Notes: generated from the sequence alone by a model not told the origin. Shown: positions 7,775 through 52,875, numbered from the stretch's first letter. The stretch: 64,000 nucleotides of DNA from an uncultured Chloroflexia bacterium (GCA_963704935.1 CAVPIF010000003.1:1279652-1343651), one strand, 5' to 3'. Translations and numbers: made by a program.

Positions 7775-7801
7775 CAATCCCGACCAGCGGGGTCGGGATT
7801 G
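7775..7801. promoter_or_regulatory. Putative Rrf2 (IscR type-1-like) operator over the sufU -35 region
   Basis: Perfect 11-bp inverted repeat CAATCCCGACC-AGCGG-GGTCGGGATTG with a CCGAC-N7-GTCGG core; -10 TATAGT on the minus strand at 7763..7758. Confidence 0.7.
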
Positions 7802-7841
7802 GAATCGGGGCGGGTGCCGCGGCGGACCGGACAGGGCCGGG

Positions 7842-7899
7842 CGCGCCGCGAGACCCGGGCGCCGCCGCGAGACCCGGGCGCCGCCGCGAGACCCGGGCG
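7842..7899. repeat. 19-bp tandem repeat, 3 copies
   Basis: Unit GCCGCCGCGAGACCCGGGC; the first copy differs slightly at its start. Confidence 0.9.
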
Positions 7900-7915
7900 C
7901 GCCGACGCCTGAGCG

Positions 7916-8158
7916 AATCCTGCATCTGATACAAGCACCCGAGCCTTGCCTGGCCGTCAACGGGCGGTCAGAGCGCCAAAGGCGGCATCCGATGCCCGAT
8001 CTGGTGCACGCCCAGCCATGGACCGTGCCCACCGATGCCGAACCGGCGGCCAATCCGGCATCTGATGCCGGGTCGATGACAGGCGGATCAGCGAGCAGGC
8101 CCGTGCTTGTATCTGGCGCAAGCCGCTGCGGCAAATCCGGCATCTGCGGCCGGATGCC
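7916..8158. repeat. Spaced palindrome array (GCATC-N-GATGC core) containing an 18-bp imperfect long-range inverted repeat
   Basis: Units near 7922, 7984, 8057 and 8138; TGCATCTGATACAAGCAC (7921-7938) pairs with GTGCTTGTATCTGGCGCA (8103-8120). Confidence 0.55.
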
Positions 8159-8231
8159 CGGCAGACCCCCGCGCGCCGGCCGCCCGACCCCACCTGTCCC
8201 GCCCGGCAGACCCCACCCGTCCCGCCCGCCC

Positions 8232-8298
8232 GACCCCACCGGCGCCACCCGGCAGACCCACCGGCGCCACCTGGCGGACCCACCGGCGCCGCCCGGCA
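8232..8298. repeat. ~22-bp C-rich tandem repeat, 3 copies
   Basis: GACCCACCGGCGCCACCCGGCA-like units at 8232, 8255 and 8277. Confidence 0.8.
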
Positions 8299-8407
8299 GG
8301 CACACCCGGATCCAGGTGGTGCGGTCCCGCACCGGACTTGTTCGTGCGGCCGGTCGGTACGATGCGACCGGCCGCCGGCGGGCCACCCGGCCCTAGAGTC
8401 GAACGCG

Positions 8408-9687
8408 GTGGCAACGATGCTCGCGGATCGGCTCGAGGCGAAGGTCGGCGGGGTCGCGCAGAAGCGCGGGCTCATCCCACGCATGCCGCCCGGCGATCGG
8501 CTGCTCGACGACGCCGCGGTCTGGTTGACCGCCCAATACGCGGACGCGGTGCGGTCCACCCGCCGCCGGACGCTGGCGAACGGCGAGGCGGAGCTGGCGA
8601 TGGACCTCCACCCGGCGGCCCCGCCGCTCGTGATCACGGCTTCGGACGCGGGGCGCGTCGCAGTCTCGGGAGAGACGGCGCTGACGGGACCCGGCTATCA
8701 CCGCTTCGTCGGACGCGTGCTGGAACGCCTCGGTGCGGAGGTCGGTATCGAATGGACCGACGGCGACGGCGCGCTCACGTTCGCGGATCGCGCCCTGGCG
8801 GAACGCGGCTACCTGGCGTGGCTCGGTCCGGAGCTGGCGCGTGCGCGGGAGGCCGTCCGGCGCGGCGGGCGTGGCATCCACCTCGGGCTGCCCGGCGAGA
8901 CCCGCTACACGACCGATGCGGCCCTGATCACCGTCCTCGGCCCGCGGGACGAGGCCTGGCTCGACGCGGCGATCGCCGACCCACGGGTCGCGCTGGACAG
9001 CACGCCGTGGTGGTCCGATGCGACCGACGGGCGGTACTACCTCAACCGCGGACTCGTGCTGATGTGGCTCCAGGTCCGCTGGCGCACCCCCGCCGTCGAA
9101 GGCGAGGCTGACCTGCTGGATGAGGTCCACCGACTCCTCAGCCGCGCCTTCCCGGACGAGCCGTCACTCGCCTATCCATGGTCCGCCTGGGCGCAGCTCT
9201 GCGCGTTGCGAGGACATCGTGACGCGATGGCCCGGCAGGCGACCAGCCGCTCCCTGAAAGAGGCCGAGCCGGAACGGGCGGTCGGGTATCGTCGCGAGCC
9301 GGTCCGCGTCCAGCATGAAGGCTGGAGCCTGGAGATCCCGGGGTCGTACGCAGAGCGCCGCACGTCGATGAATGGTGGGCCGGCGGCGCCGGCCGCGGGA
9401 TCACCCTGGCGGCGACGCGCACCGGCCTGCCGGACGGCTCCGCGATGCCGGCCGAGTCGTTCATCGCGCAATACGCGAACGTGGGGCCCGACGCCCTGCA
9501 TCACCGCGCCGGAGAGCTGATCGGGCGCGCCCGCCTGACGACCGATTCGAGCTCCGGGGTGGAAGTCGGCGTTCTCGAGGGCTACGCGGCCGTCCGCGGC
9601 TCCGGCGCCGCCATCAGGATCCAGTTCGACGACCCGGTCGACTGGCAGTGGGCGGTCGATACCTGGCGGGCGCTGACGCCGCGCTGA
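8408..9687 (+). CDS. Hypothetical protein (~425 aa); frameshift near 9368
   Basis: ORF 8408..9520 is protein-like up to ...GSYAERRTS; it continues in the frame of ORF 9445..9687 (EWWAGGAGRGITLAA...WQWAVDTWRALTPR); TAGAGT -10 lies 8 nt before the GTG. Confidence 0.7.
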
Positions 9688-9731
9688 CGCCGGCCTGAGC
9701 CCAGCGTGGGAAGAGGGCGGCCCGGGGCGGG

Positions 9732-10991
9732 TCAGCCGTTGAAGACCCGCTGGACCTCGCGGAGGCCGGCGGCGAGGGCATCGATGTCGTCCGTCGTCGT
9801 GAAGACGCTGAACGAGGCGCGGGCGGTGGCCGGGAGGTCCAGGCGCTCGTGCAGCGGCATCGTGCAGTGGTGACCGGCGCGAACGGCGATGCCGGACCGA
9901 TCCAGGACCTGGGCGACATCGTGCGGATGGATGCCCGGCAGATTGAACGGCACGACGCCACCCCGCAGGTCCGGGTCCACCGGTCCGTACAGCTCGATCC
10001 CCGGGACCTCGCGCGGGAGGACCTCCAGCGCGTAGGCGACGAGGTCGCGCTCGTGGACTCGGACCGCGTCCATCCCGATCCCGCGGAGGTAGTCGGCCGC
10101 GACGCCGAGCCCGATCGCGTCGCCGACGGCCGGCGTCCCCGCCTCGAACTTCCAGGGGATCTCGTTGAACTCGCTCCGCCGCAGGTGGACCTCGCGGATC
10201 ATCTCGCCGCCGGTCAGGAACGGCGGCATCGCCTCCAGCAGCTCGCGCCGCGCCCACAGCGCGCCGGAGCCCATCGGGGCCAGCATCTTGTGGCCGCTGA
10301 ACGCGTAGAAGTCGGCGCCGAGCGCCTGGACGTCGACCGGCAGGTGCGGCACGCGCCTGCGCGCCGTCGACGAGCACGAGCGCGCCGGCGGCGTGCGCCA
10401 TCTCGACCATCTCGCGGACCGGGTTGATCGTGCCGAGCGTGTTCGAGACGTGGGTGAACGCGACGAGCTTCGGCTTGAGCCGGAGCAGCACCTCGAACAC
10501 GTCCAGGCGCAGGATGCCGTCGTCCGTGATCGGGATGAACTCCAGGTCGCCATCCACCTCCTGGACCAGGATCTGCCACGGGACGAGGTTGGCGTGATGC
10601 TCCATCTCGGTCAGGACGATCTGGTCGCCGCGGCCGATGTTGCGGCGCCCCCAGGAGTAGGCGACCAGGTTGATCGCCTCCGTCGCGTTGCGCGTGAACA
10701 CGACCTCGCGGCTGTGCGGGGCGTTGATGAACCGCGCGACCTGGGCCCGGGCCGCCTCGTACGCCGCGGTCGCCTGCTCGCCGATCTCGTAGATGCCGCG
10801 GTGGACGTTGGCGTTGTAGCGGCGGTAGTAGTCGTCGACGGCATCGATCACGACGCGCGGCTTCTGGCTGGTCGACGCCGAGTCGAGGTAGGTCAGCCGA
10901 TGCCCATGGATCTGCCGGTCGAGGATCGGGAAGTCGGCGCGCAGCGCGACCGGGATCCAGGGCCCGGGCGACCGGTCGTCTCGATGGCCAT
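9732..10991 (-). CDS. sufS: Cysteine desulfurase SufS; frameshifts near 10358 and 10955
   Basis: LRADFPIL, YLDSASTSQKP, NVHRG, EHHAN, DGAQ, FSGHKM, KFEAGTP, RAGHHC. Confidence 0.93.
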
Positions 10992-11018
10992 CGCGCTGAT
11001 CGACTCCTGCGCCCGGGC

Positions 11019-11924
11019 TCAGCGGGCGGCTTCGACGGGCTCGAGCTCCAGCTCGGGGCCCTTGGGCACCAGCAGCGCCTCGTCGGAGACGTTGGTCTCC
11101 AGGCCGGCCTCGCGGAGGATCGGGCCGTAGCCCTCGTCCTCGAGGCGGAGGGCCAGGTCCTTGCCGCCGCTCTTGACGATGCGACCCTGGGCCAGGACGT
11201 GGACGACGTCCGGCTTGATGTAGTTGAGCAGCCGCTGGTAGTGGGTGATCAGCAGGACGCCGAGGTTCGGGTTGAGCATCGCGTTGACGCCCTCGGCGAC
11301 GATCCGCAGGGCGTCGATGTCGAGCCCCGAATCGGTCTCGTCGAGGATCGCCATCTCCGGCTCCAGGACGGCCATCTGGAGCATCTCGAGGCGCTTCTTC
11401 TCGCCGCCGGAGAAGCCCTCGTTGACGTAGCGCGACGCGAAGCCCTCGTCCATCCGGAGGAGCGACATCTTCTCGCGCATCTTGTTGCGGAAGTCGCGCA
11501 TGGAGACGCCGCCCTTGACCGGGTCGGTCGGGTCGATGTCGGGGTTCTTGTCGATGCCCTGCAGCCGGGCGTTGAGCGCGCTCCGGATGAAGGAGGCGAC
11601 GCTGAGGCCCGGGATGGCGGTGGGGTACTGGAAGGCGAGGAACATGCCCAGGCGCGAGCGCTTGTCCGGCGACAGGGCGAGGATGTCGCGGCCCTTCCAG
11701 AGGACCTCGCCGCCGGTGACGACGTAGGCCGGGTGACCCATCAGGGCGTAGGCGAGCGTCGTCTTGCCCGAGCCGTTGGGGCCCATGATCGCGTGGACCT
11801 CGCCCTGGCCGACGGTCAGGTCGATGCCCTGGAGGATCTCGTGGTCCGGGTTCGCGAGGGGCGCGACGCGAAGGCCGCGGATGACGAGGTGCTGCTCGGT
11901 GGGGGCGCGGTCGTGCTCGCTCAC
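11019..11924 (-). CDS. sufC: Fe-S cluster assembly ATPase SufC
   Basis: GPNGSGKT, FLAFQYP, NEGFSGGEKKR, LDETDSGLDIDAL, ITHYQRLL. Confidence 0.97.
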   Translation of the reverse strand: MSEHDRAPTEQHLVIRGLRVAPLANPDHEILQGIDLTVGQGEVHAIMGPNGSGKTTLAYALMGHPAYVVTGGEVLWKGRDILALSPDKRSRLGMFLAFQYPTAIPGLSVASFIRSALNARLQGIDKNPDIDPTDPVKGGVSMRDFRNKMREKMSLLRMDEGFASRYVNEGFSGGEKKRLEMLQMAVLEPEMAILDETDSGLDIDALRIVAEGVNAMLNPNLGVLLITHYQRLLNYIKPDVVHVLAQGRIVKSGGKDLALRLEDEGYGPILREAGLETNVSDEALLVPKGPELELEPVEAAR

Positions 11925-12441
11925 GGGTGGGTCAGGGCTCCTTGGCGGTCATCGAGGCCGACGAGGCGCTGCGGCACGAGGTCGGCGAGGGTCATGGAAT
12001 CGAGGGCGGACGTGATCGCGTCACGGACGCGCACCCACAGCACGTTGACCGTGCAGCGGGCGGATCGGTCGCAGGTGGTGGCGTGCTCGGGATCATCGCT
12101 GGCGCAGATCATCGGAGCGATGGGACCTTCCAGGGCCCGAAGGACTTCGCTCATCGGGATCTCCTCCGGCGGCCGTGCCAGCTCGTAGCCGCCATGAGCG
12201 CCGCGCGTGCTGACGACGAGGCCCGACGTCGCGCAGGCTGACGACGAGCTGCTCGAGATAGGCTCGCGGGAGGTCTTCCTCGGCGGCGATCCCGGCGAGG
12301 CTGGCCGGCCCGGTCCCGATAGTGGCGGGCGAGCTGGACCATGAGCCGCACGCCGTACTCGCCCTTCGTGGAGAAGGCCAGGGCGCCCGTGCCGTGGTAG
12401 GCGGGTCGCGGGAGGGTCGGCGGCGGCGTCAGGGTCGTCAG
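11921..12441 (-). CDS. Rrf2-family transcriptional regulator (IscR/CymR-like, 3 Cys); two frameshifts, probable CTG start
   Basis: FSTKGEYGVRLM, YLEQL, STRGAHGGYELA, VLRALEGPIAPMIC...C...C; no ATG/GTG/TTG in frame between the promoter and the conserved core; GAGG lies 8 nt before CTG at 12441. Confidence 0.85.
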
Positions 12442-12454
12442 GGTCGTGGCCTCG

Positions 12455-12479
12455 ATATCCGAGTGATTTCGTCGGATAT
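12455..12479. promoter_or_regulatory. Rrf2 autoregulatory operator (IscR type-1-like 25-mer)
   Basis: ATATCCGA-GTGATTTCG-TCGGATAT, a perfect 8-bp inverted repeat directly downstream of the -10 box. Confidence 0.8.
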
Positions 12480-12481
12480 GG

Positions 12482-12510
12482 AGTCTATGGCCGACCCGGC
12501 CGGCCGTCAA
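12482..12510 (-). promoter_or_regulatory. Sigma70-type promoter of rrf2-sufC-sufS
   Basis: TTGACG-N17-TAGACT on the minus strand. Confidence 0.8.
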
Positions 12511-12938
12511 CGCGCCCTCGGGCGCGCATGAAGAGACCGGGGCACCCACCGTTGCCGGCGAGCACCCCGGTCCACCGGCGCCGCTCGGGGAAACGGCGCC
12601 GAACGGTGGAGGCGAAGGAACGGGGTGGACCGGCCGCCGACCTGACCCGGTCGCACGGCCGGCCTGGGTCCCGGCGAACCTGGCGCCGGGACGATCTCGA
12701 CACGAGCGTTCGATCCCCGCTGGATCCCCGATCCCGGGCGACCTCCGCCCGCTGCGACCAGCATGCGAGCAGGTCCTCCCGCGGTCCAGTACGAATGGGG
12801 GGTGCCGGACCGTACCGGACCGCACCGTACCGCACTGGACCACACCTTCGACCTGCCGAAACCGGTGCGGAAGGGCACCGACGCGCCGGGGATGGCCCGG
12901 ATCCTTCGTGTCCGCCTCGAACGCGGTACATTCTGCGG

Positions 12939-13409
12939 ATGAGCCTGATCGATCGCGCCGCCCAGCTGGACCGTTACGCGACCGGCGCCGCGGACGTCGT
13001 CGACGCCCTGTCGGCGATCACCCCGGGCGAGCTCGACCGCCGGCCGCCGTCGGGCGCGTGGACGGCCCGCGAGATCGTCCACCACCTGGCCGACAGCGAG
13101 TCGATGGCCTACATCCGTCTCCGTCGCCTCGTTGCGGAGGATGCCCCGGTCATCGACGGCTACGACGAGCCCGAGTGGGCACGCCGGCTTCACTACGACC
13201 GGCCGACCGAGCCCTCGCTTGCGGTGTTGACTGCGGTCCGGGCCGCCAGCCACGAGCTGCTCACGGCCATGACGCCGGCGGAATGGGCGCGGGCGGGAAC
13301 GCACAGCGAGTCGGGTGCCTACTCCGTGGATCGCTGGCTGGCGATCTACGCCGAGCACAGCCACGAGCACGCCGACCAGATCCGGCGCGCCCGCCGCGGC
13401 GAGGACTGA
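12939..13409 (+). CDS. DinB/YfiT-family protein
   Basis: WTAREIVHHLADSE, YDEPEWA, HSHEHADQI; TACATT -10 lies 6 nt before the ATG. Confidence 0.88.
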   Translation: MSLIDRAAQLDRYATGAADVVDALSAITPGELDRRPPSGAWTAREIVHHLADSESMAYIRLRRLVAEDAPVIDGYDEPEWARRLHYDRPTEPSLAVLTAVRAASHELLTAMTPAEWARAGTHSESGAYSVDRWLAIYAEHSHEHADQIRRARRGED

Positions 13410-13427
13410 GCCAGGCTCCCGTCCGGG

Positions 13428-14783
13428 TCAGGCGACGATGAGGCGGTCCCGACCGGCGGCCTTGGATTCGTAGAGGGCCAGATCGGCCTGCGCGACGAGC
13501 GCATCCGGCGATTCGGTGGAGGCGTCGCGATAGACAGTGCCGCCAAGGCTGACGGTGACGCCGATCTGCTGGTCGCCCTCGACAACGCTCGTCTCGGCGA
13601 CGGCGCGACGGATCCGCTCGCCGACTTCGCGCACGTCCGCGAGCCCGGCACCCGGCAGCAGGACGAGGAACTCCTCGCCTCCGAACCGGATCAGCACGTC
13701 GCCCTCGCGGACGACCCGACGGCAGGCGCCCGCGACGGCACGCAGGACGCGGTCGCCGACGAGGTGGCCGTAGGTGTCGTTGATCACCTTGAAATGATCG
13801 AGGTCCAGCATCAGGACCCCGAGCGGGCTTTCGGCCCGGACCGCCCGCGAGTATTCCTCGCGGAGCCTCGCCAGCCCGAAGCGACGGTTGTAGGCGTCGG
13901 TCAGCGGATCCAGCGCCGCGAGACGTTCCAGGCGATCGTGCGCGAGGGCGTTGTTGACGGCCAGGGCGAGATCCGTGCGGAACCCGTCGAGCAGGTGCTC
14001 GGCGTCCGGGTGGAGCTGGTCCGCGGTGGCCAGCACCACGACCCCGAGCGGGACGCCCTTGAACGAGATCGGCGCGACGAGCACTTCGTGGGCCGGCCGC
14101 CCCAGCAGGAGCGAGTCCACGATGAACGCCGAATCGGCGATGGTCAGTCGCTCGGAAACATCCGTCCGCAGGACCCGTCGGACGTGGTCACTCGTGGCGA
14201 GACCCTCGCTGCCGCGGAGGCCGTGAGAGGCCAGGGGTTCCAGCTGGGTGTCGCGGATGATCAGCAGGGCTCCGGCCTGGGTGCCCGTGCCGGCCAGCAA
14301 CTCCTGGAGCGCCGCCTCCGCCAGTTCGTCGAGGTCGTAGCGGCTCGACAGCACCCGGCTGAACGAGCGCATCGCGGTCTCCACCTCGTGACCACGAGCC
14401 AGCGTCGTGATCAGGTTGTTGAACGACGCGGCGGCGGCCCCGACCTCATCCGAGGAGTCGACCGGCAGCGCGCAGGTCGCTGGATCGCAGCCGGACCAGT
14501 CGTGGGTGAAGACCGCGTGCGCCAGGCGGCCGTCGACGGTATCCATCCGGTCGGCGAGCAGACGCAGGCGCCGACCGACGACGAGCCGGGCGAGCCCGAA
14601 GTTCACCCCGCCGACGATGACGCCGGCGGTCAGGGTCGCGCCGAAGAACAACGGCGAGATCACCCGCTCTGCCGGCAGCCCGAGGACGAGGCAGAACGGC
14701 GGGAAGATGAGGCCGATGGCGATGCCGAACCCGGTCATCCAGATGGCGAGGTCGGTGAAGACGCGAGAAGTCAGGCGCGGCAC
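13428..14783 (-). CDS. Membrane sensor diguanylate cyclase (2 TM, HAMP-like, GAF-like, GGDEF)
   Basis: DPLTDAYNRR, DLDHFKVINDTYGHLVGD, RFGGEEF; GGAG RBS before the GTG at 14783. Confidence 0.9.
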   Translation of the reverse strand: MPRLTSRVFTDLAIWMTGFGIAIGLIFPPFCLVLGLPAERVISPLFFGATLTAGVIVGGVNFGLARLVVGRRLRLLADRMDTVDGRLAHAVFTHDWSGCDPATCALPVDSSDEVGAAAASFNNLITTLARGHEVETAMRSFSRVLSSRYDLDELAEAALQELLAGTGTQAGALLIIRDTQLEPLASHGLRGSEGLATSDHVRRVLRTDVSERLTIADSAFIVDSLLLGRPAHEVLVAPISFKGVPLGVVVLATADQLHPDAEHLLDGFRTDLALAVNNALAHDRLERLAALDPLTDAYNRRFGLARLREEYSRAVRAESPLGVLMLDLDHFKVINDTYGHLVGDRVLRAVAGACRRVVREGDVLIRFGGEEFLVLLPGAGLADVREVGERIRRAVAETSVVEGDQQIGVTVSLGGTVYRDASTESPDALVAQADLALYESKAAGRDRLIVA

Positions 14784-14911
14784 GGCGAGGCTCCATGGTG
14801 GATTGGTCGTCGGTCCAGTCGAGCACCAGCATCGACCGGATGCATCGCGCTTCCCATCGGTCGATGGTCGCGAATGGCCGGTACTATCGATCCTCCGCCT
14901 GGCAGTCGCGG

Positions 14912-15790
14912 TCAGGCTCGATCGGTCAGTCGATCCAGCGTTTCGGAACGCCACGCCTCCGTGGCCTCGACCGCGTTGAACGTGTACAGGTGGAAACCGG
15001 AAACCTTCGCGGCCGGGTCGGCCAGCAGCGGAGCGATCGCTTCGACGAATGCCGTCGGCTTGTAGAAGCCGCCGGATCGAGCGAGCCCGGTCACGAAGCG
15101 CAGGTTCTTGACGAGGAACCGCTTGGCGTCCTTGACGCCGATCCGGGCGGCGATGCTGAGCAGCTTCTGCGGGTCGGCGACGCCCGGGACGCCGACCACG
15201 ACCGGCGTCGCGAAACCTTCCGCCCGGCGAGCGCGGACCCAGCGATCGATGGCCTTCGTATCGAAATCCATCTGGGTGACGACATGGGCGACGTACGGGG
15301 CCTTGTCGAGAAGCGCGGCGGCCAGCGCCTCGTCCGGGATGTCCGGGTGGCCCTGCGGGTACGCCGGGCTGCCGATCTCGGTGAACGGGTGCCCAAGCTC
15401 CGCCATCGCCCGAAGGAGTGCCAGGCCGTCCAGGAATTCGCCCGGTTCGTCGGCGTCGCCACCCACGACGAAGGCCCGCGTCAGGCCGGCCTCGCGAGCC
15501 CGTGCCAGCACCTCGGCGAGCTTCCCGCGATCGGGGATCATCCGGGCGGAGAGGTGCGGGATGACCCGGTATCCATCCGCCTGCAGGCGGGTCGCCCAGT
15601 CGAGTGTCGCGTCGGTCCCCTTGGACGGTGAGGCCGTCACCGACACGCGCGCGCCCGCTGGCAGATGGGGCACCTGGTCGGGCAGGTTCTTGAGTGGCAG
15701 AAGCTCGAAGATCGGGTCGGCGAGGGCGGCCGCAAGGGCGGCTCGCGCGGAAGGGTCGAGCCCGCGGCGGCGGGTCAGCAGGCTCGTCAA
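14912..15790 (-). CDS. metF: Methylenetetrahydrofolate reductase family protein
   Basis: IPHLSAR, FVVGGD, YPQGHP, VTQMDFD, FHLYTFN. Confidence 0.85.
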   Translation of the reverse strand: MTSLLTRRRGLDPSARAALAAALADPIFELLPLKNLPDQVPHLPAGARVSVTASPSKGTDATLDWATRLQADGYRVIPHLSARMIPDRGKLAEVLARAREAGLTRAFVVGGDADEPGEFLDGLALLRAMAELGHPFTEIGSPAYPQGHPDIPDEALAAALLDKAPYVAHVVTQMDFDTKAIDRWVRARRAEGFATPVVVGVPGVADPQKLLSIAARIGVKDAKRFLVKNLRFVTGLARSGGFYKPTAFVEAIAPLLADPAAKVSGFHLYTFNAVEATEAWRSETLDRLTDRA

Positions 15791-43367: not shown

Positions 43368-43369
43368 GG

Positions 43370-43852: not shown

Positions 43853-43913
43853 GATCGGAGAGTCTACCGTCCGGCTGCCGCCCGTGCCACGCCCCGGGCG
43901 CTAGGATGGCCCG

Positions 43914-44393
43914 GTGAGCGACCTCCCGCGTCCCCCGGAGCCCGGCGAACGTCGGCTGGACCGTCCGCCGTCCGACCGATTCCGCGATCCCCGGCCCGAC
44001 CTCGAGCCCGTCCCCGGTCCGACCGGCTCGGCGGCCCGGGCGGTCGGCGCGGGTGTCCTGGCCGGCATCGCCGGAGCCATCGCGACGGTCGTCCTGGGCG
44101 GCGTCATCGGGCTGTCGGCGGGGCTGCTCGTGGTGGCCGCCGCCACCGGCTGGGGGATCGGCACCGGGACCAGGATCGGAGCCCGGGAGGCGGCCGCCGG
44201 CCCATCGCGACACTGGCCGGCGGTCGCCATCGCCGCGGCGGCCGTGGTCGTCGGGCAGCTGGGCCTGTGGCTGTACGCGCGGTCCGAGGGTGGGGTGCTG
44301 CCGCTGCCCGACTATCTCGGGGCGACGTTCGGTGTCCTGGTCCCGGCCCAGGCCGCGATCGCACTGGGCGTGGCGTGGTGGACGGCCCGGTGA
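43914..44393 (+). CDS. Hypothetical membrane protein (~4 TM)
   Basis: Hydrophobic segments; TAGGAT -10 lies 6 nt before the GTG; stop overlaps the next start. Confidence 0.7.
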   Translation: MSDLPRPPEPGERRLDRPPSDRFRDPRPDLEPVPGPTGSAARAVGAGVLAGIAGAIATVVLGGVIGLSAGLLVVAAATGWGIGTGTRIGAREAAAGPSRHWPAVAIAAAAVVVGQLGLWLYARSEGGVLPLPDYLGATFGVLVPAQAAIALGVAWWTAR

Positions 44394-44905
44394 GGGGGCC
44401 GCCCCCTGGGGACGCGGCGGCGACCGTCGTCTTCCGTCGTCCGTCCGAGGCCGATCACCCGCGACTGGTCGAGGTCATGGATGAGTGGTGGGGCGGCCGA
44501 CGGATCCGGGCGCTGCTCCCACGCCTGTGGCTCGAGCATTTCGCCGGCACGTCGTGGATCGCCGAGGACGGAGATGGTCGGCTGCGTGGCTTCGTCGTCG
44601 CGTTCATCAGCCAGGACGACCCGGCGACGGGGTACGTCCACCTGATCGCCAGCGACCCGAACCGGCGGCGCGCCGGGATCGGCCGAGCGCTGTACGAGCG
44701 GGCCTTCACCGACCTCGCCGCCCATGGCGCCCGGCGCGTCACTGCGGTCACGTGGCCGGGAAACCGGACCTCCGTGGCCTTCCATCGGTCCATGGGCTTC
44801 CGCGTGGATGACGGACCCGGGACCCAGCCGATCTACGGGACGGCGGCCCACCCGGACCACGATGGGCCGGGCGAGGACCGCGTGGTCTTCAGCCTCGATC
44901 TGTGA
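44390..44905 (+). CDS. GNAT-family N-acetyltransferase
   Basis: EWWGGR, YVHLIASDPNRRRAGIGRALY, N..SVAFHRSMGF. Confidence 0.88.
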   Translation: MRGPPPGDAAATVVFRRPSEADHPRLVEVMDEWWGGRRIRALLPRLWLEHFAGTSWIAEDGDGRLRGFVVAFISQDDPATGYVHLIASDPNRRRAGIGRALYERAFTDLAAHGARRVTAVTWPGNRTSVAFHRSMGFRVDDGPGTQPIYGTAAHPDHDGPGEDRVVFSLDL

Positions 44906-46157
44906 CGGCCGTCTCGGCGAGGATCGTGGCCGGGGTCAGCTGCTCGTGCAGCGATCGGCCGAAACGTTCGGCCCGCTGGCCCGGTGCCACCGACGCGAGC
45001 CATCGCCCCAGGAGCGCCTCCCCCTCCGCGTAGACGAAGACGTATGTCCGCCACAGCGGGTGCTCGATGAAGTCGAGACGCTTCTCGGCGACGTCACGGG
45101 GGTGGCCACCGACCTCGCGAAGGTAGTCGACCACCTCGTCATGCGGACGCTCGTCGACGTGACGCAGGTAGGCGGCGTTGCCGCCGATGGCCCCCAATGC
45201 CTGCCGTGCCGGGGCGATCTCCACGGCCAGCTCGGCCGCGGCACGGGCGCGCGCAGGGTCGGACGCGACGGCGCAGCCGCCAAGCTCGATCACCTCCAGC
45301 AGCAGGTCCACGGCCGCATCCAGCGGCACCGCGAACCCGATGGCCAGCTCGGCCAGGCCCTCGCTGATCGGGCACTCCGGGGTATTGATGAGCAGCGCGG
45401 ACGCTTCCAGCCGAGCGAGCCGGTCGACCAGGTCGGCCTCCTTCCAGGCGTGTTCCAGGTGGTGCCCGGGATACGTCTCGTGGGCGACCGTCGAGATGAG
45501 GGTCGGTGCCCGGACCGGCAGGTCCGTATTGATGTCGACCCGCGATCGGCGGCCGCCGTCGAACCAGTTGTAGCCGGCCCATGGCTGGTCCCGGACCAGC
45601 GACACGCGCAGGTCCTCGCCGGCCGGCAGGCCGAACGCCGCCTCGGCGCGCGACCGGAACCGTGCGACGAGCAGGTCGATCACCGCCGGCAACCGATCCA
45701 GCCCGATCACGAGATCACCCTCCCACGCCTCCAGGCGCTCGTGGAGGGGCGCCGCACCGGGCAGCAGCGCATCGACGGACGCCCGCGCGGCCGTGAACTC
45801 CGCCTCATCGCGACGCAGCGGCACGAACCCCAGGCACCGGGCGACGTGGTCCATGTAGGGCAGCGGCTCACCGGCCAGCGAGCCGGCATGCGCCTCGAGG
45901 GCCACGAGCTGGGCGTCCAGCCACGCGCGACGGTCGGGATCGGCGACATCGCGGGCCACGCGTTCTCGCAGCGCGATCGCGTCGCCGCGCAGTCGCGACG
46001 GCGATCGGAGCTGCTCCATGTCCACCTCGGCCTTCAGCGCCGCGGGCCCGAAGTAGCCGTCGACGAGGCCGGGGAGGCGCTGGTCCAGCCGGAGCGCGAG
46101 ACGGAGGTAGTCCGCCGCGACCGGGTCTGGGGCGGGCACCTGTCGCGTGCCGCCCAT
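44889..46157 (-). CDS. DUF885-like putative zinc metallopeptidase
   Basis: VDGYFGP, HETYPGHH, ISEGLA, YVFVYAEG. Confidence 0.7.
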   Translation of the reverse strand: MGGTRQVPAPDPVAADYLRLALRLDQRLPGLVDGYFGPAALKAEVDMEQLRSPSRLRGDAIALRERVARDVADPDRRAWLDAQLVALEAHAGSLAGEPLPYMDHVARCLGFVPLRRDEAEFTAARASVDALLPGAAPLHERLEAWEGDLVIGLDRLPAVIDLLVARFRSRAEAAFGLPAGEDLRVSLVRDQPWAGYNWFDGGRRSRVDINTDLPVRAPTLISTVAHETYPGHHLEHAWKEADLVDRLARLEASALLINTPECPISEGLAELAIGFAVPLDAAVDLLLEVIELGGCAVASDPARARAAAELAVEIAPARQALGAIGGNAAYLRHVDERPHDEVVDYLREVGGHPRDVAEKRLDFIEHPLWRTYVFVYAEGEALLGRWLASVAPGQRAERFGRSLHEQLTPATILAETAVTDRG

Positions 46158-46213
46158 CGCCGGAACGTGGACGCGAGCGCGGTCCCTGGGAGCCCTGCCG
46201 TTCGGGTTCGAGC

Positions 46214-46741
46214 TCACCGCTGCATGCGGTCGGGTCGGGGCGCTCGTCGCTCCCCGTGGTCCCGATGGGCGTCGGCCTCCCGACGCGCCGCCTCGAGCCG
46301 ATCGGCCAGGGACGGGTCGGCCGGCAGGCCGCTCCGGTCGGGCGCCCGGTCGGGCGCTCGGTCGACGCCACGCGCCCTGCGGCGCTCGGTCTCCGGGCTG
46401 GCACCGACACCCATGCCGCCGGTCTCGCCGACGAACGGCATCGACTGGCGCTCCACCGCGTCCAGGCTCATCCGGAGCGCGGCCGTCTTCTGGGCGGCGA
46501 CCTCGCGGACATAGGTGGCCGCCTCGTCCGGGGTCATCGGCCGGCCGCGGACGATCCCCTTGGGCTTGCCGACCATGAGCCAGGCCAGGTGGTACCGATC
46601 CATGCTGCCCCACGCCGTCGACAGCAGATCGTCGGACAGCTGGAGCCAGATCTGCAGCGCCCCGAGCGACGGATCCGCGCCGAGCCGCTCGCCCTCGTCG
46701 ATGAGCTGGCGGGTGCGACTGATCAGCTCGTCTCGGGTCAT
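46214..46741 (-). CDS. Hypothetical protein
   Basis: ATGA overlap with the pabC-like stop; protein-like N-terminal ~110 aa (WLQLSDDLLSTAWGSMDRYHLAWL). Confidence 0.65.
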   Translation of the reverse strand: MTRDELISRTRQLIDEGERLGADPSLGALQIWLQLSDDLLSTAWGSMDRYHLAWLMVGKPKGIVRGRPMTPDEAATYVREVAAQKTAALRMSLDAVERQSMPFVGETGGMGVGASPETERRRARGVDRAPDRAPDRSGLPADPSLADRLEAARREADAHRDHGERRAPRPDRMQR

Positions 46742-47661
46742 CCCTCGATCCCGTCCCCGGCGAGACCCTGGATCATCGCCTCGCGGTCCGCCCGGGCGCG
46801 CAGCGTCCAGGCGCCGGGCAGGCCATCGCCGATCGAAGCACCGTCGAGGGCCGTCACCGGCAGGATCCCGGCCACGCTGGAGCACAGGAACGCCTCGTCG
46901 GCCGTCGCCAGGTCCGCCACGGTCAGGAAGGCCTCCAGCGGCCGGAGGCCGACCCGGGTCCCCCAGGCCAGCAGCCACGAACGGGTCGTGCCGGGCAGGA
47001 TCGCGCAGTCGAGCGACGGCGTGGCGAGCTCCATGACCTCGCCGCCCGCCCTCCTCACCAGGAAGATGTTGGCGCTGGTCGATTCGGACAGGTGGTCGTC
47101 GATGGTCAGGAACAGCGCGTCATCGGCGCCGGACCGCCGGGCCTCGAGTCGGGCGAACACGTACTCGGCGCGGGACGTCGTCTTGAGCGCCGCGAGCGGG
47201 TTGCGCGGATCGCGGCGGACGCGACTCGACGCGAGGTGGAGGCCACGTTCCAGGTGGCTCGCGGGGGCCGGGACCACCGGCCAGGCCTGGATCACCAGGG
47301 TCGCCGTCGCGCCCTCGTCCGGCGGCAGCACGCCCCGGGCGCGGAAGACACCACGCGAGGCCGTGATCCGGATCGAAGCGTCGCCGTCGGGGCCACCCAG
47401 GCCCTCTGCGTCGAGCAGGCTGGCGATCCCGGTCGCCAGCCTTTCGTCCACGTCGACCGGGAGCGGCAGCTCCAGTCCGTCGGCCGAGCGGTGCAGCCGG
47501 GCCAGGTGCTGCGCGAGTTCCGCGACTTCGCCGCCGCGGGCCCGGAGCGTCTCGAATACGCCGTCGCCGAGCTGGAATCCGCGATCGAACGCGGACAGAT
47601 GCGGGATGTCGGCGGCCACGATCTCACCGTTCAGCCAGACGTGGCCGGGTGCGTCGGCCAT
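46738..47661 (-). CDS. pabC: Class IV aminotransferase (4-amino-4-deoxychorismate lyase / IlvE-like)
   Basis: DRGFQLGDGVFETLR, LKTTSR, ESTSANIF, LPGTTR, DEAFLCSS; directly downstream of pabB. Confidence 0.75.
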   Translation of the reverse strand: MADAPGHVWLNGEIVAADIPHLSAFDRGFQLGDGVFETLRARGGEVAELAQHLARLHRSADGLELPLPVDVDERLATGIASLLDAEGLGGPDGDASIRITASRGVFRARGVLPPDEGATATLVIQAWPVVPAPASHLERGLHLASSRVRRDPRNPLAALKTTSRAEYVFARLEARRSGADDALFLTIDDHLSESTSANIFLVRRAGGEVMELATPSLDCAILPGTTRSWLLAWGTRVGLRPLEAFLTVADLATADEAFLCSSVAGILPVTALDGASIGDGLPGAWTLRARADREAMIQGLAGDGIEG

Positions 47662-49119
47662 TCAGGCCTCCCGGCCGCCGATGGCGTCGAGCGGGCCACG
47701 GGCCTTGACGACCGTCTCGTCCCATTCGGCGGAGGGATCGCTGCGCCAGGTGATGCCGCCCCCGACGTGCATGGTCAGCCGGCGGCCGTCGGCGACGAGG
47801 GTCCGGATCAGGATGCTGGTCTGCATCGCGCCGTCCGGACCGATCCAGCCGAGCGCCCCGGTGTACGGGCCCCGGCGGACCGTTTCGAGCTCCTCGAGGA
47901 TCTGCATCGCCCGGATCTTGGGCGCGCCAGTGATGGAGCCGCCGGGGAAGGAGGCGGCGAGCAGGTCGAACGCGTCGCGGCCACCGGCCAGGCGACCGGT
48001 CACCGTCGAAACGAGGTGCTGCACCGCCGCCGTCCGTTCCAGACGGCACAGGCGCGGGACGCGCACCGTCCCGGGCTCGCAGACCCGCCCCAGGTCGTTG
48101 CGCAGGACGTCGACGATCATCACGTTCTCCGCGCGGTCCTTGGCGCTTGCGAGCAGCTCGCGGGCGAGGGCGCGGTCCTCTGCCCGGTCGCGCCCGCGCG
48201 GCCGCGTCCCCTTGATCGGGTCGCTCGCGACCGCCCCGTCGGCGGTCACGGACAGGAACGGCTCCGGCGAGGCGGACAGGAGCGCGCGCGGACGACCGGT
48301 CTCCGGCGACGCCCCGAGGTCGAGATACGCCGAGAAGAGGGACGGATCGCCGGTGCGCAGGCGCCGATAGCGCGACCAGGGATCGGCGTCGAACGGCGAC
48401 TCCAGCCGCCGAGTCAGGTTGGCCTGGTAGATGTCGCCACGGGCGATGTGGTCGCGGACCGCCTCGACGCCCGCCTGGTACGCCGAACGCGACAGCGACG
48501 AGGTGAACGTGAGCGGCAGATCGACGTCGGTCATGGTGACGCCCGCGTCGGATGGGGCAGTGAGCACGGCCCGCTGGACCCGTGTCGTCGAGAGCCGGGC
48601 ATGGACGTCGTCGAGCCGGCGCGCGAGGCGTCGGCCATCGCCGTCCAGCGCCCGACCGCCCAGCCACGCATGCCCGGTCCGCCGATCCCAGGCGACGACC
48701 CAGTCGTGCAGCGCGAGGCGCATCGGCGGCAGTCCCTGGTCGTCGGCCGCGACCGACGGCAGGCGCTCCAGGACGTGGGCGAGGTCGTACCCGAGGAACC
48801 CGACGAGTCCCCCGAGGAAGGGCGGAGCGTCGGCCGGCACGAGCGGCGCCCGGTCCAGCCGCGAGACCAGCCGCCGGGCGACGGCGAAGGGATCCGGGCC
48901 GGCCGCCGGTGCTTCCAGGACGGCGACCGGATCCGCCGCGAGGTACGTCCAGCGGGCGTTGCGGCCGGGCCGCGCGCTCTCCAGCAGAGCGAGGCCGGGC
49001 AGGTCGCGGAAGGCCTCGGCGACGTCGATCGCGCGCTGGCTCGCGACGCGTTCCGACAGCCGACGCAAGCGCAGGCTGGCGGCCGGGGTTCCGGGCGGGG
49101 TGGGACCGACGGGGATCAC
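47662..49119 (-). CDS. pabB: Aminodeoxychorismate synthase component I (chorismate-binding)
   Basis: LLESA, GDIYQANL, SPEPFL, PIKGTRPR, KDRAENVMIVDVLRNDLGRV, FPGGSITGAPK. Confidence 0.85.
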   Translation of the reverse strand: MIPVGPTPPGTPAASLRLRRLSERVASQRAIDVAEAFRDLPGLALLESARPGRNARWTYLAADPVAVLEAPAAGPDPFAVARRLVSRLDRAPLVPADAPPFLGGLVGFLGYDLAHVLERLPSVAADDQGLPPMRLALHDWVVAWDRRTGHAWLGGRALDGDGRRLARRLDDVHARLSTTRVQRAVLTAPSDAGVTMTDVDLPLTFTSSLSRSAYQAGVEAVRDHIARGDIYQANLTRRLESPFDADPWSRYRRLRTGDPSLFSAYLDLGASPETGRPRALLSASPEPFLSVTADGAVASDPIKGTRPRGRDRAEDRALARELLASAKDRAENVMIVDVLRNDLGRVCEPGTVRVPRLCRLERTAAVQHLVSTVTGRLAGGRDAFDLLAASFPGGSITGAPKIRAMQILEELETVRRGPYTGALGWIGPDGAMQTSILIRTLVADGRRLTMHVGGGITWRSDPSAEWDETVVKARGPLDAIGGREA

Positions 49120-49259
49120 GCCCGAGATGATACGGCCGGTCGACGGCGCGGGCGGCCGCGCGGGCGGCCGCCGACCTTCCTTGCGCGTCGGTTGGTCGCG
49201 GGAGCCGATGTCGGCCTGCCGACGGCACGTGAGCGCGGCGGGGCCGCTAGATTGTGCAG

Positions 49260-50387
49260 ATGCGCGCACGAGACCTCGGGATCACCATCGGACGCGGGAC
49301 GCCCGGACCGCGCAACGCCATCACCGACGTCCGCGGCGTGACGGTCGGCCACACGACGCTGGTCCGTGGGGACGGGCCACTGGTCCGCGGCCAGGGACCG
49401 GTCCGGACCGGCGTGACGGTCATCTGCCCGCGCGGGGCGGACGGCTGGAGGGAGCCGGTCTTCGCGGGCTGCCACCGGCTGAACGGCAACGGGGAGTTGA
49501 CCGGCCTGGAGTGGGTCCGCGAATCGGGCTTCCTCACGACCCCCGTGGCGATCACCAACACGCACAGCGTCGGCGTGGTGCGCGACGCGCTGGTGGCCGC
49601 CTCCCTGGAGCGCGACTCGCTCGAGGCGAGCTGGTCGCTGCCGGTGGTCGGGGAGACCTACGACGGCGTCCTCAACGACATCAACGGGTTCCACGTCGAG
49701 ACGACCCACCTCCACGAGGCCCTCGCGGCAGCGTCCGATGGCCCGGTGGCGGAGGGTGCCGTCGGTGGCGGCACGGGGATGATCTGCCACGAGTTCAAGG
49801 GTGGGATCGGCACCGCATCGCGAGTCCTCGACGCCGATGTCGGCGGATTCACGGTCGGGGTCCTGGTCCAGGCGAACCACGGTCGTCGCGAATGGCTGCG
49901 GGTCGATGGCGTGCGCGTGGGCGAGGCGATCGGGACGGCCGAGGTCCCCAGTCCGTGGGACCATCCGGCGGCGCGCCCCGGTCCGGTTCCGGGGTCGGGC
50001 TCCATCATCGTGGTCGTCGCCACGGACGCCCCGTTGCTCCCCCATCAGTGCGAACGGCTCGCCCAGCGGGCCGGACTGGGGATCGCGCGCGTCGGCGGGA
50101 CCGGCGGCCACACCAGCGGGGACCTGTTCATCGCCTTCGCGACGGGGAATCGGCTGCCGATCGGGACCGGGGTCGACGACGATCCGTCGGGTCACGGCAC
50201 GTACGGGGTCCGGGCGGTCGGCGACATCGTCATCGACCGGCTGTTCGACGCCGTCATCGAGTCGACCGAAGAGGCGATCGTCAACGCGCTCGTAGCCGCC
50301 GAGACGACCGTCGGCCGCGACGGGATCACCGCATTCGCGCTGCCGCATGACCGGCTCCGGGAGGTCCTGGCGGCGCACGGGCGATGA
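49260..50387 (+). CDS. DmpA-family (P1/S58) aminopeptidase
   Basis: RARDLG, NAITDV, TGVT, LNGNGELTG, PVVGETYDG.LND, GSIIVVVATDAPL, SGD. Confidence 0.92.
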   Translation: MRARDLGITIGRGTPGPRNAITDVRGVTVGHTTLVRGDGPLVRGQGPVRTGVTVICPRGADGWREPVFAGCHRLNGNGELTGLEWVRESGFLTTPVAITNTHSVGVVRDALVAASLERDSLEASWSLPVVGETYDGVLNDINGFHVETTHLHEALAAASDGPVAEGAVGGGTGMICHEFKGGIGTASRVLDADVGGFTVGVLVQANHGRREWLRVDGVRVGEAIGTAEVPSPWDHPAARPGPVPGSGSIIVVVATDAPLLPHQCERLAQRAGLGIARVGGTGGHTSGDLFIAFATGNRLPIGTGVDDDPSGHGTYGVRAVGDIVIDRLFDAVIESTEEAIVNALVAAETTVGRDGITAFALPHDRLREVLAAHGR

Positions 50388-51229
50388 TCGTCCGCCTGGC
50401 GACGAGCGGCGACGTCCCGGCGGTGGCGGACGTGTTCGAAGCGTCCGGAGAGTCCCTGACCTGGCCCGGCCTGCCCGGTTGGCCGTACGTCGAGCACCTC
50501 GTGGCTCGGGCGCGGGTCCCGATCGCGATCGTGGACGGCGTCGTCGTCGGGATGGCGGGCTCGCTGGAGGTCGGCCGGACGGATGTGCGCTTCCTGTCCG
50601 ACCTGTTCGTGCGTCCGGATCGGCAGGACGGTGGCGTCGGGCGGGCGCTCCTGGCCGCCGCGTTCGCGGGGGCGTCGCAGCGGTTCACCTTCTCGTCCGC
50701 CGATCCGCGGGCCCTGGGCCTGTACATCAGGACCGGGCTGCGGCCCTGGTGGCCGGTGCTCTACCTCGAGGCGTCGCCGAGCAGCCTGGGCGAGCCGGAC
50801 CGCGCGTTCCAGGTCGAGCCGGCGGAGGTGGCGACCACGGCCGGCTGGTCCCGCGCGTGGACCGGCATGGACCGGACCGTCGACTTCCGCCATTACGCGT
50901 CGCTCCCGGACGGGACCGGATGGCTGGCCCGGGAGGCCGGCCAGGTCGCGGCGGTGGCCTGGTCCAACCGCGGTCGGACGCGCCCGGTCCAGGTCCTCGA
51001 TCACGTCTCCGTCGCGCCGGGGGCGGATCCCGTCCGGGTCGTGCTCGCCCTCATGCGCGCCGCCGTCGCCACCTCGGAGGCGCTGATCCTGACGATCCCG
51101 GGCCCGCACCCCGCCGTCGCCGGCCTACTGGAGCGAGGCGCCCGGATCGTGGACCGCGACGAGTTCTGCGCGACGGATCCGTCGCTCCTGGACCCTGCCC
51201 GGATCCTCCCGAACCCGGGCTTCCTCTGA
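50384..51229 (+). CDS. GNAT-family N-acetyltransferase (two-domain)
   Basis: LSDLFVRPDRQDGGVGRALL, ALGLYIRTG. Confidence 0.82.
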   Translation: MIVRLATSGDVPAVADVFEASGESLTWPGLPGWPYVEHLVARARVPIAIVDGVVVGMAGSLEVGRTDVRFLSDLFVRPDRQDGGVGRALLAAAFAGASQRFTFSSADPRALGLYIRTGLRPWWPVLYLEASPSSLGEPDRAFQVEPAEVATTAGWSRAWTGMDRTVDFRHYASLPDGTGWLAREAGQVAAVAWSNRGRTRPVQVLDHVSVAPGADPVRVVLALMRAAVATSEALILTIPGPHPAVAGLLERGARIVDRDEFCATDPSLLDPARILPNPGFL

Positions 51230-51245
51230 CCGACCGGCCCGCGGG

Positions 51246-52112
51246 CTAGTCGATGACCACCGGCGCGGGCTTCTCGATCGGCACCCCGATCAGGCTGCCG
51301 TACTCGGTCCAGGAACCGTCGTAGTTGCGAACGCGCTCGTACCCCAGCAGCTCGTGGAGCACGAACCAGCTGTGGCTGGAGCGCTCCCCGATGCGGCAGT
51401 AGGCGATGACGTCCTTGTCCGGCGTGATGCCCTTGGCCGCATACAGCGCGGCCAGTTCCTCCGCGGGCTTGAAGCGACCGTCCTCGCGGACGGCCTGGGC
51501 CCACGGGATGGACGCCGCGCCGGGGATGTGCCCGGCCCGCTGGGCCGTCTCGCTCATGCCTGGGGGCGCGATGATCTCGCCGTTGTACTCGGCCGGCGAG
51601 CGGACATCGACGAGCGCCAGTCCCGGGTCGCCGAGGCGGGGGAGGATGTCGTCGCGGAAGGCCCGCAGCGCGAAGTCGGCTTCCGGCAGCCGGTAGTCCG
51701 TCTCCTGGTACGTCGGGACATCGATCGTCACGGGCAGGCCGTGATCCAGCCAGAACTTGCGACCGCCGTCCAGGATGCGGACGTCGACGTGCCCGTAGAG
51801 CTTGAGCTGCCAGTAGGCCCAGGCGGCGAACCAGTTGTTGTTGTCGCCGTACAGGACGATGGTCGTGTCCGCGCCGATCCCGGATGTCCGGAGCAGGCTG
51901 GTGAAGTCGTCTCGCGACGCGATGTCGCGACGGACGCCGTCAGACAACTGGCTGGTCCAGTCCCAGGCGACGGCACCCGGGAGGTGGCTCTGCTCGTAGG
52001 CCGTCGTATCGACGTCGACCTCGACGAAGCGGACGCCGGGGTCCTCGATGTGGGCTTGGGCCCAGGCGGCGTCGACGAGGGCGGAGTCGGTGGCGTATCC
52101 GTGGTGGCTCAT
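51246..52112 (-). CDS. Thiosulfate sulfurtransferase (tandem rhodanese, CysA/SseA-like)
   Basis: VEVDVD, HLPGA, YGDNNNWFAAW, GHIPGA, YCRIGERS, YDGSWTEY. Confidence 0.95.
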   Translation of the reverse strand: MSHHGYATDSALVDAAWAQAHIEDPGVRFVEVDVDTTAYEQSHLPGAVAWDWTSQLSDGVRRDIASRDDFTSLLRTSGIGADTTIVLYGDNNNWFAAWAYWQLKLYGHVDVRILDGGRKFWLDHGLPVTIDVPTYQETDYRLPEADFALRAFRDDILPRLGDPGLALVDVRSPAEYNGEIIAPPGMSETAQRAGHIPGAASIPWAQAVREDGRFKPAEELAALYAAKGITPDKDVIAYCRIGERSSHSWFVLHELLGYERVRNYDGSWTEYGSLIGVPIEKPAPVVID

Positions 52113-52164
52113 GCGGTGGTTCCTCGCGTGCGTGTGGTGGTGCGGATCGGGGATCCGGTCGTCG

Positions 52165-52283
52165 GTCGGGGGTCGGCCCGGCCCGGGTCGGGTGTCGGCC
52201 CGGGTGTCGGCCCGGCTCGGGTGTCGGCCCGGCGCGGGTGTCGGTCGGGGGTCTGCCCGCCCGGCTCGGGTGTCGGCCCGGCT
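52165..52283. repeat. G-rich degenerate short repeats (GGGTGTCGGCCCGG, about 5 copies)
   Basis: Copies near 52190, 52202, 52219, 52236 and 52268. Confidence 0.7.
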
Positions 52284-52324
52284 CCAGCCGGATGACGAGG
52301 ATGGGGGCGGCTGCTCCGAGTCCC

Positions 52325-52807
52325 TCAGCCGCCGGCAGGTCGGTCGCGGCGACTGAACTCGGCGAGCCGCTCCGTACACTCGGCGGCTGCCCGCTGCGCC
52401 TGCCGAACGATCCACGGATCGACCCGCGACGACGCCTCGATGGTCAGCGTGGGGCCGGACGGACCGTCCGCCACGACGATCCCGGCGCTGTTGCGGTAGT
52501 CGGCCATCCAGTTCGCCTGGAGCTGCAGCGCGACGTCGGCGATGACGGGGACCGGGAACAGCCAGTCCAGGTACGTCGCGTCGAGGCGGCCGGCGAGGTC
52601 CTCGAGGCGGACCGGACGACCTCGCTCGATCCGCGCGACGAGGTCGATCACCCGGCCGGTGGTGAATGGGTCGCCCGCCTCCGCGACGGTCGGCGGGGTG
52701 ATGCGCGGATCCGGCATCCCGGCCGGGGCCGGACGGAGCGGCCCGAGACCCACGGACACGGACCGGCCCGCTGTCGAGGGCGGTGTGGCGGTCGTCGCGT
52801 CGCTCAC
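52325..52807 (-). CDS. Hypothetical protein, co-oriented upstream of the sulfurtransferase
   Basis: 160-aa ORF with GGAG RBS, promoter and operator upstream; no recognisable motif. Confidence 0.7.
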   Translation of the reverse strand: MSDATTATPPSTAGRSVSVGLGPLRPAPAGMPDPRITPPTVAEAGDPFTTGRVIDLVARIERGRPVRLEDLAGRLDATYLDWLFPVPVIADVALQLQANWMADYRNSAGIVVADGPSGPTLTIEASSRVDPWIVRQAQRAAAECTERLAEFSRRDRPAGG

Positions 52808-52818
52808 TGGTCGGGTGA

Positions 52819-52875
52819 ATCTCCGAGTGGATCAGTCGGGAGCGGCAGTCTAGCGCAGGGACATGAGGGGGTCTA
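52819..52875 (-). promoter_or_regulatory. Promoter with putative Rrf2 operator
   Basis: TAGACC-N17-TAGACT on the minus strand; operator ATCTCCGAGTGGATCAGTCGGGAGC (52819-52843) lies 3 nt downstream of the -10. Confidence 0.7.

Follow-up and report, generated by a model that had tools for sequence, protein, structure and literature searches.

A predicted IscR-like Rrf2 regulon at four dispersed iron–sulfur and sulfur promoters of an uncultured Chloroflexota bacterium, with a candidate cysteine leader

Among regulators of known structure, the closest relative by sequence of the protein considered here is IscR of Thermincola potens (4CIC), a member of the Rrf2 family that is sited with suf genes (that is, genes for assembling iron–sulfur (Fe–S) clusters) in a non-proteobacterial organism and has reportedly been studied by Santos et al. 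(2014, PNAS). The present case comes from a stretch of 64,000 nucleotides (nt) of an uncultured Chloroflexia bacterium (GCA_963704935.1, CAVPIF010000003.1:1279652-1343651; hereafter, the window), in which an rrf2 gene followed by suf genes is accompanied by 25-bp palindromes (that is, putative operators) at its own promoter and at two others, a fourth lying before sufB-sufD elsewhere on the same contig. On the basis of sequence comparison, we consider it quite probable that an IscR-like Rrf2 repressor controls these four dispersed promoters through one type of 25-bp palindrome. This is a well-supported but ordinary case of established IscR-type control and holds no new principle; what is new lies in the details, namely the sufU-specific and the fourth operators, a conserved CTG start codon and a leader open reading frame (ORF). 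It supplies a concrete and testable Fe–S assembly regulon (protein, 25-bp site and four promoters) for an abundant uncultured soil lineage, would join the genes of Fe–S assembly, both by location and by transcription, with a rhodanese and with cysteine synthesis by way of a carrier protein, and has its value as annotation and as a source of leads (the leader ORF, the CTG start and a winged-helix-like protein).

The protein shares with T. potens IscR a DDPEH stretch before the cysteine region. The two systems differ in that ours belongs to another phylum and is known from sequence alone, that the suf genes are here split over three loci, each with an operator, that the regulon would here reach a CysO-type cysteine pathway and a rhodanese, and that the equivalent of residue 8 is Glu, whereas the 4CIC chain has His. 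Escherichia coli IscR has in common with it the Rrf2 fold, three cysteines and autorepression through a 25-bp inverted repeat (a feature of E. coli IscR that is predicted here), whereas the cysteines are arranged differently (C92, C98 and C104 with His107 in E. coli; C-X10-C-X5-C here, without a His at three residues beyond the last Cys) and IscR in E. coli acts on suf as an activator, by way of type-2 sites, the suf genes here appearing to be repressed. According to PMC8593673, every type-1 promoter is subject to repression, with holo-IscR binding the type-1 sites. RisR of Myxococcus xanthus, according to PMC9973013, is likewise an Rrf2 protein encoded upstream of suf that represses Fe–S biogenesis operons in its holo form; the same paper describes Rrf2 regulators adjoining Fe–S biogenesis genes as common and RisR as nearer to NsrR, whereas the present protein is nearest to T. 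potens IscR and the CymR group. CymR (Bacillus, Staphylococcus) comes second in closeness among the solved relatives and first in score among the NCBIfam models, and cysteine-synthesis genes lie within the regulon proposed here; the aligned CymR chains, however, have no cysteines in the cluster region, where three are invariant in our protein, and cysteine would here more likely be sensed by way of the leader ORF. SufR, according to PMC8593673, is a DeoR/ArsR-type regulator with CAAC-N6-GTTG before suf, whereas here an Rrf2 protein and a different operator are found (no search of the genome for a SufR homologue was made), and the same source calls it largely unknown how suf is regulated in groups that lack SufR. 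We found no such regulon in Chloroflexota in the literature, coverage of which did not extend to supplementary tables that might list one.

The organism is a member of Limnocylindria (Chloroflexota) and is not actinobacterial. Its genome assembly measures 3.08 Mb with 71% guanine plus cytosine and is 88.6% complete, and all of the genes concerned are encoded on the minus strand. Among 24 public sequencing runs, six of them of RNA, none contained half of the sequence words sought, and the shares in the RNA runs were small. A first-pass annotation of the window had claimed three palindromic 25-mers at 12455-12479, 7776-7800 and 52819-52843, and they are found exactly there (Operators 1, 2 and 4 in Table 1), as are the TAGACT -10 elements that it had placed 2-3 nt from the first and the last of these; its placement of the sufU site over a -35 region also agrees with the distance from that site to a TATAGT -10. 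The rrf2 promoter, TTGACG-17-TAGACT, is the sole sigma-70-like match in 4400-12700. As a probe for the regulon, the bare core CCGAS-N7-GTCGG was discarded as too common (100 strand-hits in the genome). A fuller pattern with 18 scored positions, AWWYCCGAS-N7-STCGGRWWT, was composed from the sites and their orthologues. Allowing at most one mismatch, it gives two matches in the window compared with 0.00 expected (none in 100 shuffles), whereas allowing at most three gives three matches compared with 1.18 expected, a number reached by 13 of the 100 shuffles; the relaxation adds just the 52819 site to those of rrf2 and sufU.

Genome-wide scoring, which covered contigs C1 and C3 and set the spacer of 7 against eight control spacers (3-6 and 8-11), gave the same division. 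At 17/18 or better, the native spacer yields three sites only (rrf2, sufU and one before sufB) and the control spacers none; at 15/18 or better, it yields 36 positions, the control spacers giving 15-36. The rrf2 and sufU sites are far beyond chance, and the 52819 site stands through its conservation in relatives alone. Enrichment upstream of sufB/sufD had been anticipated for a true regulon, and the extra top hit in the genome precedes sufB-sufD: this operator lies on the same contig as the window, 590 kb off, and overlaps a GATAAT -10 that stands 17 nt after TTGACG, with sufD following sufB. The contrary expectation, that hits would be spread at random at background frequency, does not describe the rrf2, sufU and sufB sites and does describe the window's own 52819 copy. 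A matrix built from all four classes gives top genome scores of 33.3, 32.0, 26.7 and 16.7 bits, the next being 12.0, although this matrix includes the sites that it scores and the result is thus partly circular.

Dispersed control under one operator type, as first suggested for three promoters, is borne out by phylogenetic footprinting at four. We compared 28 rrf2 loci of the genus and a wider set of the closest 80 loci (78 of which have sufficient upstream sequence and are usable), 30 loci each for sufU and for the gene of no known family (below, the hypothetical gene), and for sufB 23 genus loci together with 7 from a second family of relatives with genomes of about 1.1 Mb; those relatives' genomes that lack an rrf2 match are incomplete (59-87%). 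At rrf2, the strict pattern directly follows the -10 in 26 of the 28 genus loci and the other two (L006 and L012) carry variants in the same position. The operator is present in all 78 usable loci of the wider set, 73 of them scoring 18/18, three 17 and two 16, and the TTGACG is kept, as is a -10 (TAGACT, TACACT or TACAAT) directly preceding the operator. Given that the half-site is found as ATATCCGAC and also as AATCCCGAC among these rrf2 operators, the rrf2 sites are linked to those of sufU. The sufU operator scores at least 17/18 in 28/30 loci, 27-29 nt before the ATG, and the -10 (TACACT, TATAGT or TAGACT) does not change position; the exceptions are a decayed copy (13/18) and a locus without a site, in which sufU directly follows the preceding gene. 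In this operator the arms are constant and the central 5 nt variable, with no compensatory pattern, which fits recognition by a protein. All 23 genus loci have the sufB operator (22 at 17/18 and one at 16), and in the same position the 7 second-family loci have a variant, AATCCTGAT..ATCAGGATT, to which the CYGAC half-site of that family's rrf2 operator corresponds.

At the promoter of the hypothetical gene, sites of the AATCCCTAGTGAACCAGTCGGAGAT type score at least 15/18 in 26 of the 30 loci, 3-5 nt after a conserved TAGACT, the remainder being three indel variants and one locus without a site. With a matrix drawn from the rrf2, sufU and sufB classes only, 22 of the 23 distinct sites from these loci outscore every background position (14-27 bits compared with a background best of 13.8), and within the genome the copy in the window stands at about the 9th to 11th rank. 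The earlier proposal that the regulon reaches a rhodanese 40 kb away is thus upheld in part: the orthologous promoters carry strong sites, whereas the copy here is weak and may be bound either by Rrf2 or by the winged-helix-like protein.

On these grounds, we suggest the following model. The gene at 11921-12441 would encode an Rrf2 repressor whose three invariant cysteines presumably hold an Fe–S cluster, and a dimer of this protein would bind the 25-bp palindrome (A)ATCCCGAC / ATATCCGAC - N7 - GTCGGGATT / ACTCGGATAT. Its targets would be its own rrf2-sufC-sufS operon, where the transcription start is covered; sufU-(leader)-moeZ-cysO-cysM-mec, where the -35 is covered; sufB-sufD, where the -10 is covered; and the winged-helix-like protein with the rhodanese, where the site stands just after the -10. 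Repression by occlusion fits, because each site overlaps or abuts a -35, a -10 or a start point. By analogy with type-1 sites, we infer that the holo form represses, such that the four promoters would be shut when Fe–S clusters are plentiful and released when clusters are scarce or damaged.

The regulator itself belongs to the Rrf2 family (PF02082, 131.3 bits compared with a cut-off of 30; TIGR00738, 120.5 compared with 73.3), and the first-pass description of a three-cysteine Rrf2 protein was right both in coordinates and in the cysteines. C102, C113 and C119, together with Glu18, are invariant in 8/8 orthologues aligned across two families. Of the solved chains, 4CIC is the nearest (E 7.8e-36, residues 10-146), followed by B. 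subtilis CymR (2Y75; 1.6e-30), the similarity to E. coli IscR being lower (1.7e-13). The rrf2 start codon appears to be CTG (12439-12441, minus strand), 7-9 nt after GAGG, and is in frame in 25/26 orthologues, even though the Thr/Pro/Ala-rich N-terminal linker varies in length between them; in the second family the start is TTG or GTG. A genome scan with the published type-1 consensus of E. coli IscR gave the rrf2 operator as the unique best match (21/25; the next best, 19/25, occurs at two loci), whereas the sufU, sufB and 52819 operators scored 14-20/25, within background. The resemblance to type-1 sites that had been noted for the palindromes is accordingly true of the rrf2 operator and not of the other three. 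As these three are not distinguished by the E. coli consensus, the local motif appears from the sequences to have drifted from it; the consensus was discarded as a means of finding the full regulon, singling out the rrf2 operator alone.

Several points weigh against the proposed regulon. The relatives are close kin, and counts of loci overstate their independence; the search pattern was derived from the sites themselves, such that the two perfect scores (rrf2 and sufU) are so by construction; the 52819 copy (15/18) is no better than background in the present genome; and the second-family orthologue of the hypothetical gene has no operator upstream. The regulator misses the equivalog cut-offs both of IscR (TIGR02010, 96.9 compared with 207.55; NF008110, 77.7 compared with 275) and of CymR (NF047409, 129.3 compared with 195), and because of these scores we file it as an Rrf2 protein that works like IscR and is not an IscR orthologue. 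The window copy of rrf2 is, moreover, frameshifted twice and, if this were real, the strain would be without its repressor. Compared with an intact copy on contig C2 of the same assembly, it carries one extra base near 12322 and another near 12221, which spread the ORF over three frames. C2 (11 kb) is 95% identical to window positions 4873-13416 over 8.6 kb with 47 gap openings and has some of the same genes intact, which suggests a mixture of strains or an indel-prone assembly. Given that so many housekeeping genes are broken (rrf2, sufS, moeZ and cysM), the rrf2 frameshifts are probably assembly errors. Finally, the genome encodes two further Rrf2 paralogues (window 62608-63003, plus strand, with Cys residues; C3 1086104-1086478).

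These paralogues bear on the thought that another factor, be it one of them or an unrelated protein, binds all of the palindromes and that rrf2 does no more than head a regulated operon. We hold this to be very unlikely, since IscR-type operons are as a rule regulated by their own first gene, the genome has its best type-1 match in the rrf2 operator, the operator and this rrf2 occur together in every usable locus of the wider set, and no palindrome like the operators lies upstream of either paralogue. Operators of the paralogues were on the same ground ruled out as the origin of the 52819 site. Still less credible is that the palindromes serve as hairpins in RNA or DNA (be they terminators, mobile repeats or leader structures), a reading that we regard as highly improbable: the arms are indeed inverted repeats of 8-10 bp and two of the sites lie downstream of a -10 and would be transcribed, yet the sufU and sufB sites overlap -35 and -10 elements and would thus stand upstream of the transcript, it is the arm sequence itself that is conserved with no compensatory changes, there are only four copies per genome, each at a promoter, and no T-tract follows the palindromes.

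The alternative that deserves most weight, although we think it unlikely, concerns the 52819 element alone, with Rrf2 retained at the three suf operators: the element would be the autoregulatory operator of the winged-helix-like protein encoded behind it and would merely resemble an Rrf2 site. The predicted fold of that protein (pLDDT, the predicted local distance difference test, 76) has a long C-terminal helix and finds its best Foldseek matches among PadR- and MarR-type regulators; the conserved element lacks symmetry, its two sides reading AATCCCTAG and ATCTCCGAC; and both the low score of the copy here and the siteless orthologue in the second family speak for this reading. The matches are weak, however (E 0.004-0.09; template-modelling scores, 0.3-0.56), so that a DNA-binding role of the protein is a prediction, and a merely accidental resemblance sits poorly with the scores that 22 of the 23 distinct orthologous sites reach under the suf-only matrix and with a placement identical to that of the rrf2 operator, directly after TAGACT. 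We therefore retain Rrf2 as the probable binder at all four promoters.

Between sufU and the cysteine genes lies a further conserved feature. In 29/30 loci moeZ comes next after sufU, about 110-210 nt away, and the cysteine genes may plausibly be transcribed together with sufU because neither a conserved -10-like element is seen in alignments of this gap nor a sigma-70-like match in the window. At the head of the gap, a short ORF whose ATG overlaps the sufU stop codon has an equivalent ending in RCRCxxPA-stop in 25/25 loci, the TGA or TAG stop staying in frame. RNAalifold pairs the Cys-codon stretch (UGC-AGG-UGU) with AUGCC at the moeZ start, the pairs being kept in 96-100% of the alignment cells; given that they never vary, this pairing proves nothing. 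One further hairpin in the leader has compensatory changes at three pairs, and the fold of the single sequence is no better than that of shuffles (z -1.0). A covariance model finds the leader once per genome in 34/36 genus genomes and in no other place, and in 0/24 second-family genomes; motif searches likewise found no additional copies. Rfam has no match at E ≤1 in 4000-13500, and its only two rows, elsewhere, are below the gathering score.

The leader is a candidate cysteine-sensing attenuator, and cysteine is probably sensed in cis. Its closest described counterparts are the mycobacterial attenuators with polycysteine short ORFs (Canestrari et al., bioRxiv 10.1101/834739), with which it shares a short ORF with Cys codons upstream of cysteine-metabolism genes; the Cys-codon stretch is predicted to base-pair where translation of the following gene begins. 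It differs in having two Cys codons (RCRC) rather than a longer tract and in being coupled to the sufU stop inside an operon rather than leaderless, in a member of the Chloroflexota. The first-pass annotation had credited the Rrf2 protein with CymR-like as well as IscR-like roles; the former is doubtful. If the leader works as an attenuator, a CymR-like role for Rrf2 is not needed, because the Cys-codon ORF and the structured leader precede the cysteine genes. As a tentative extension, which we would not favour as it stands, Fe–S sulfur supply in Limnocylindria might be under two stacked controls, an Fe–S-sensing Rrf2 acting on transcription at the four promoters and the sufU-coupled leader peptide (…RCRC..PA) sensing charged Cys-tRNA and opening the duplex over the moeZ start, such that the CysO pathway would be translated only when cysteine is short. 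If true, this would place a cysteine attenuator outside mycobacteria, embedded in a suf operon, and would make the co-regulated winged-helix-like protein, with its invariant Cys, a new sulfur-responsive partner of the rhodanese.

Table 1. Operators, promoter elements, genes and leader features of the proposed regulon (window coordinates unless a contig is given).
Feature	Coordinates	Strand	Remarks
-35 TTGACG, rrf2-sufC-sufS promoter	12505..12510	-	17 nt from TAGACT
-10 TAGACT, rrf2 promoter	12482..12487	-	2 nt upstream of Operator 1
Operator 1, ATATCCGAGTGATTTCGTCGGATAT	12455..12479	.	Covers predicted transcription start of rrf2; 18/18
rrf2 (IscR-like, three invariant Cys), CTG start	11921..12441	-	PF02082 3.1e-38
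sufC	11019..11924	-	ABC_tran match; GTG start overlaps rrf2 stop codon
sufS (class-V aminotransferase, cysteine desulfurase)	9732..10991	-	Two Aminotran_5 halves in different frames
Operator 2, AATCCCGACCAGCGGGGTCGGGATT	7776..7800	.	Over -35 region of sufU promoter; 18/18
-10 TATAGT, sufU promoter	7758..7763	-	12 nt downstream of Operator 2 end
sufU	7319..7747	-	NifU_N match; TIGR01994 SufU above cut-off
Leader short ORF MGRCRCHGPA	7287..7319	-	ATG overlaps sufU stop codon
Structured leader between sufU and moeZ	7157..7318	-	Conserved alignment blocks
moeZ/moeB-like (rhodanese + ThiF E1)	5929..7156	-	Matches in two frames; frameshift near 6300
cysO (ThiS-family carrier, GG end)	5660..5932	-	ThiS match
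cysM (pyridoxal-phosphate-dependent cysteine synthase)	4588..5546, start approximate	-	PALP match; frameshift near 5450
mec (JAMM/Prok-JAB)	4127..4590, start approximate	-	PF14464 at 4166-4537
sufB-sufD operator, AATTCCGAGTCAGATTATCGGGATT	contig C3 690879-690903, outside window		64 nt before sufB ATG
-10 TAGACT, hypothetical-rhodanese promoter	52847..52852	-	3 nt upstream of 52819 site; conserved in relatives
Operator 4 (third site of the first-pass annotation), degenerate copy here	52819..52843	.	15/18
Conserved protein without known family	52325..52807	-	Winged-helix-like predicted fold, invariant Cys144
Two-domain rhodanese sulfurtransferase	51246..52112	-	Rhodanese match

The names that had been given to the genes, including mec, are all correct by their domain matches (Table 1). 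In sufS, frameshifts lie near 10960 and 10340. Between sufS and sufU, a plus-strand ORF without known family (8408-9687, frameshifted) is encoded, and the divergent region upstream of sufU holds GC-rich tandem repeats at 7837-7904 (19-bp unit, 3.7 copies) and 8156-8299 (22- and 46-bp units). In one relative (G016), rrf2, sufC, sufS and sufU seem to be contiguous, as judged from coordinates. In a second-family locus (L207, on G038:C15), rrf2-sufC-sufS-sufU-moeZ-mec form an uninterrupted run in which sufU abuts moeZ and the leader is absent; the hypothetical gene is here found about 5 kb upstream of rrf2, where it adjoins a lysine 2,3-aminomutase gene and has no operator.

The protein of the hypothetical gene (52325-52807) has no match in Pfam or NCBIfam and has orthologues in 54 of 60 relatives; an Atlas search placed it with unnamed Chloroflexota clusters and gave one lead, HTH_11 (26% of members). 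The rhodanese gene follows it in 27/29 loci. In the window, the gap between the two genes is 212 nt, widened by a 17-bp tandem repeat (about 7 copies, 52157-52284), and the relatives compared have gaps of some tens of nt, such as 85 nt in L066.

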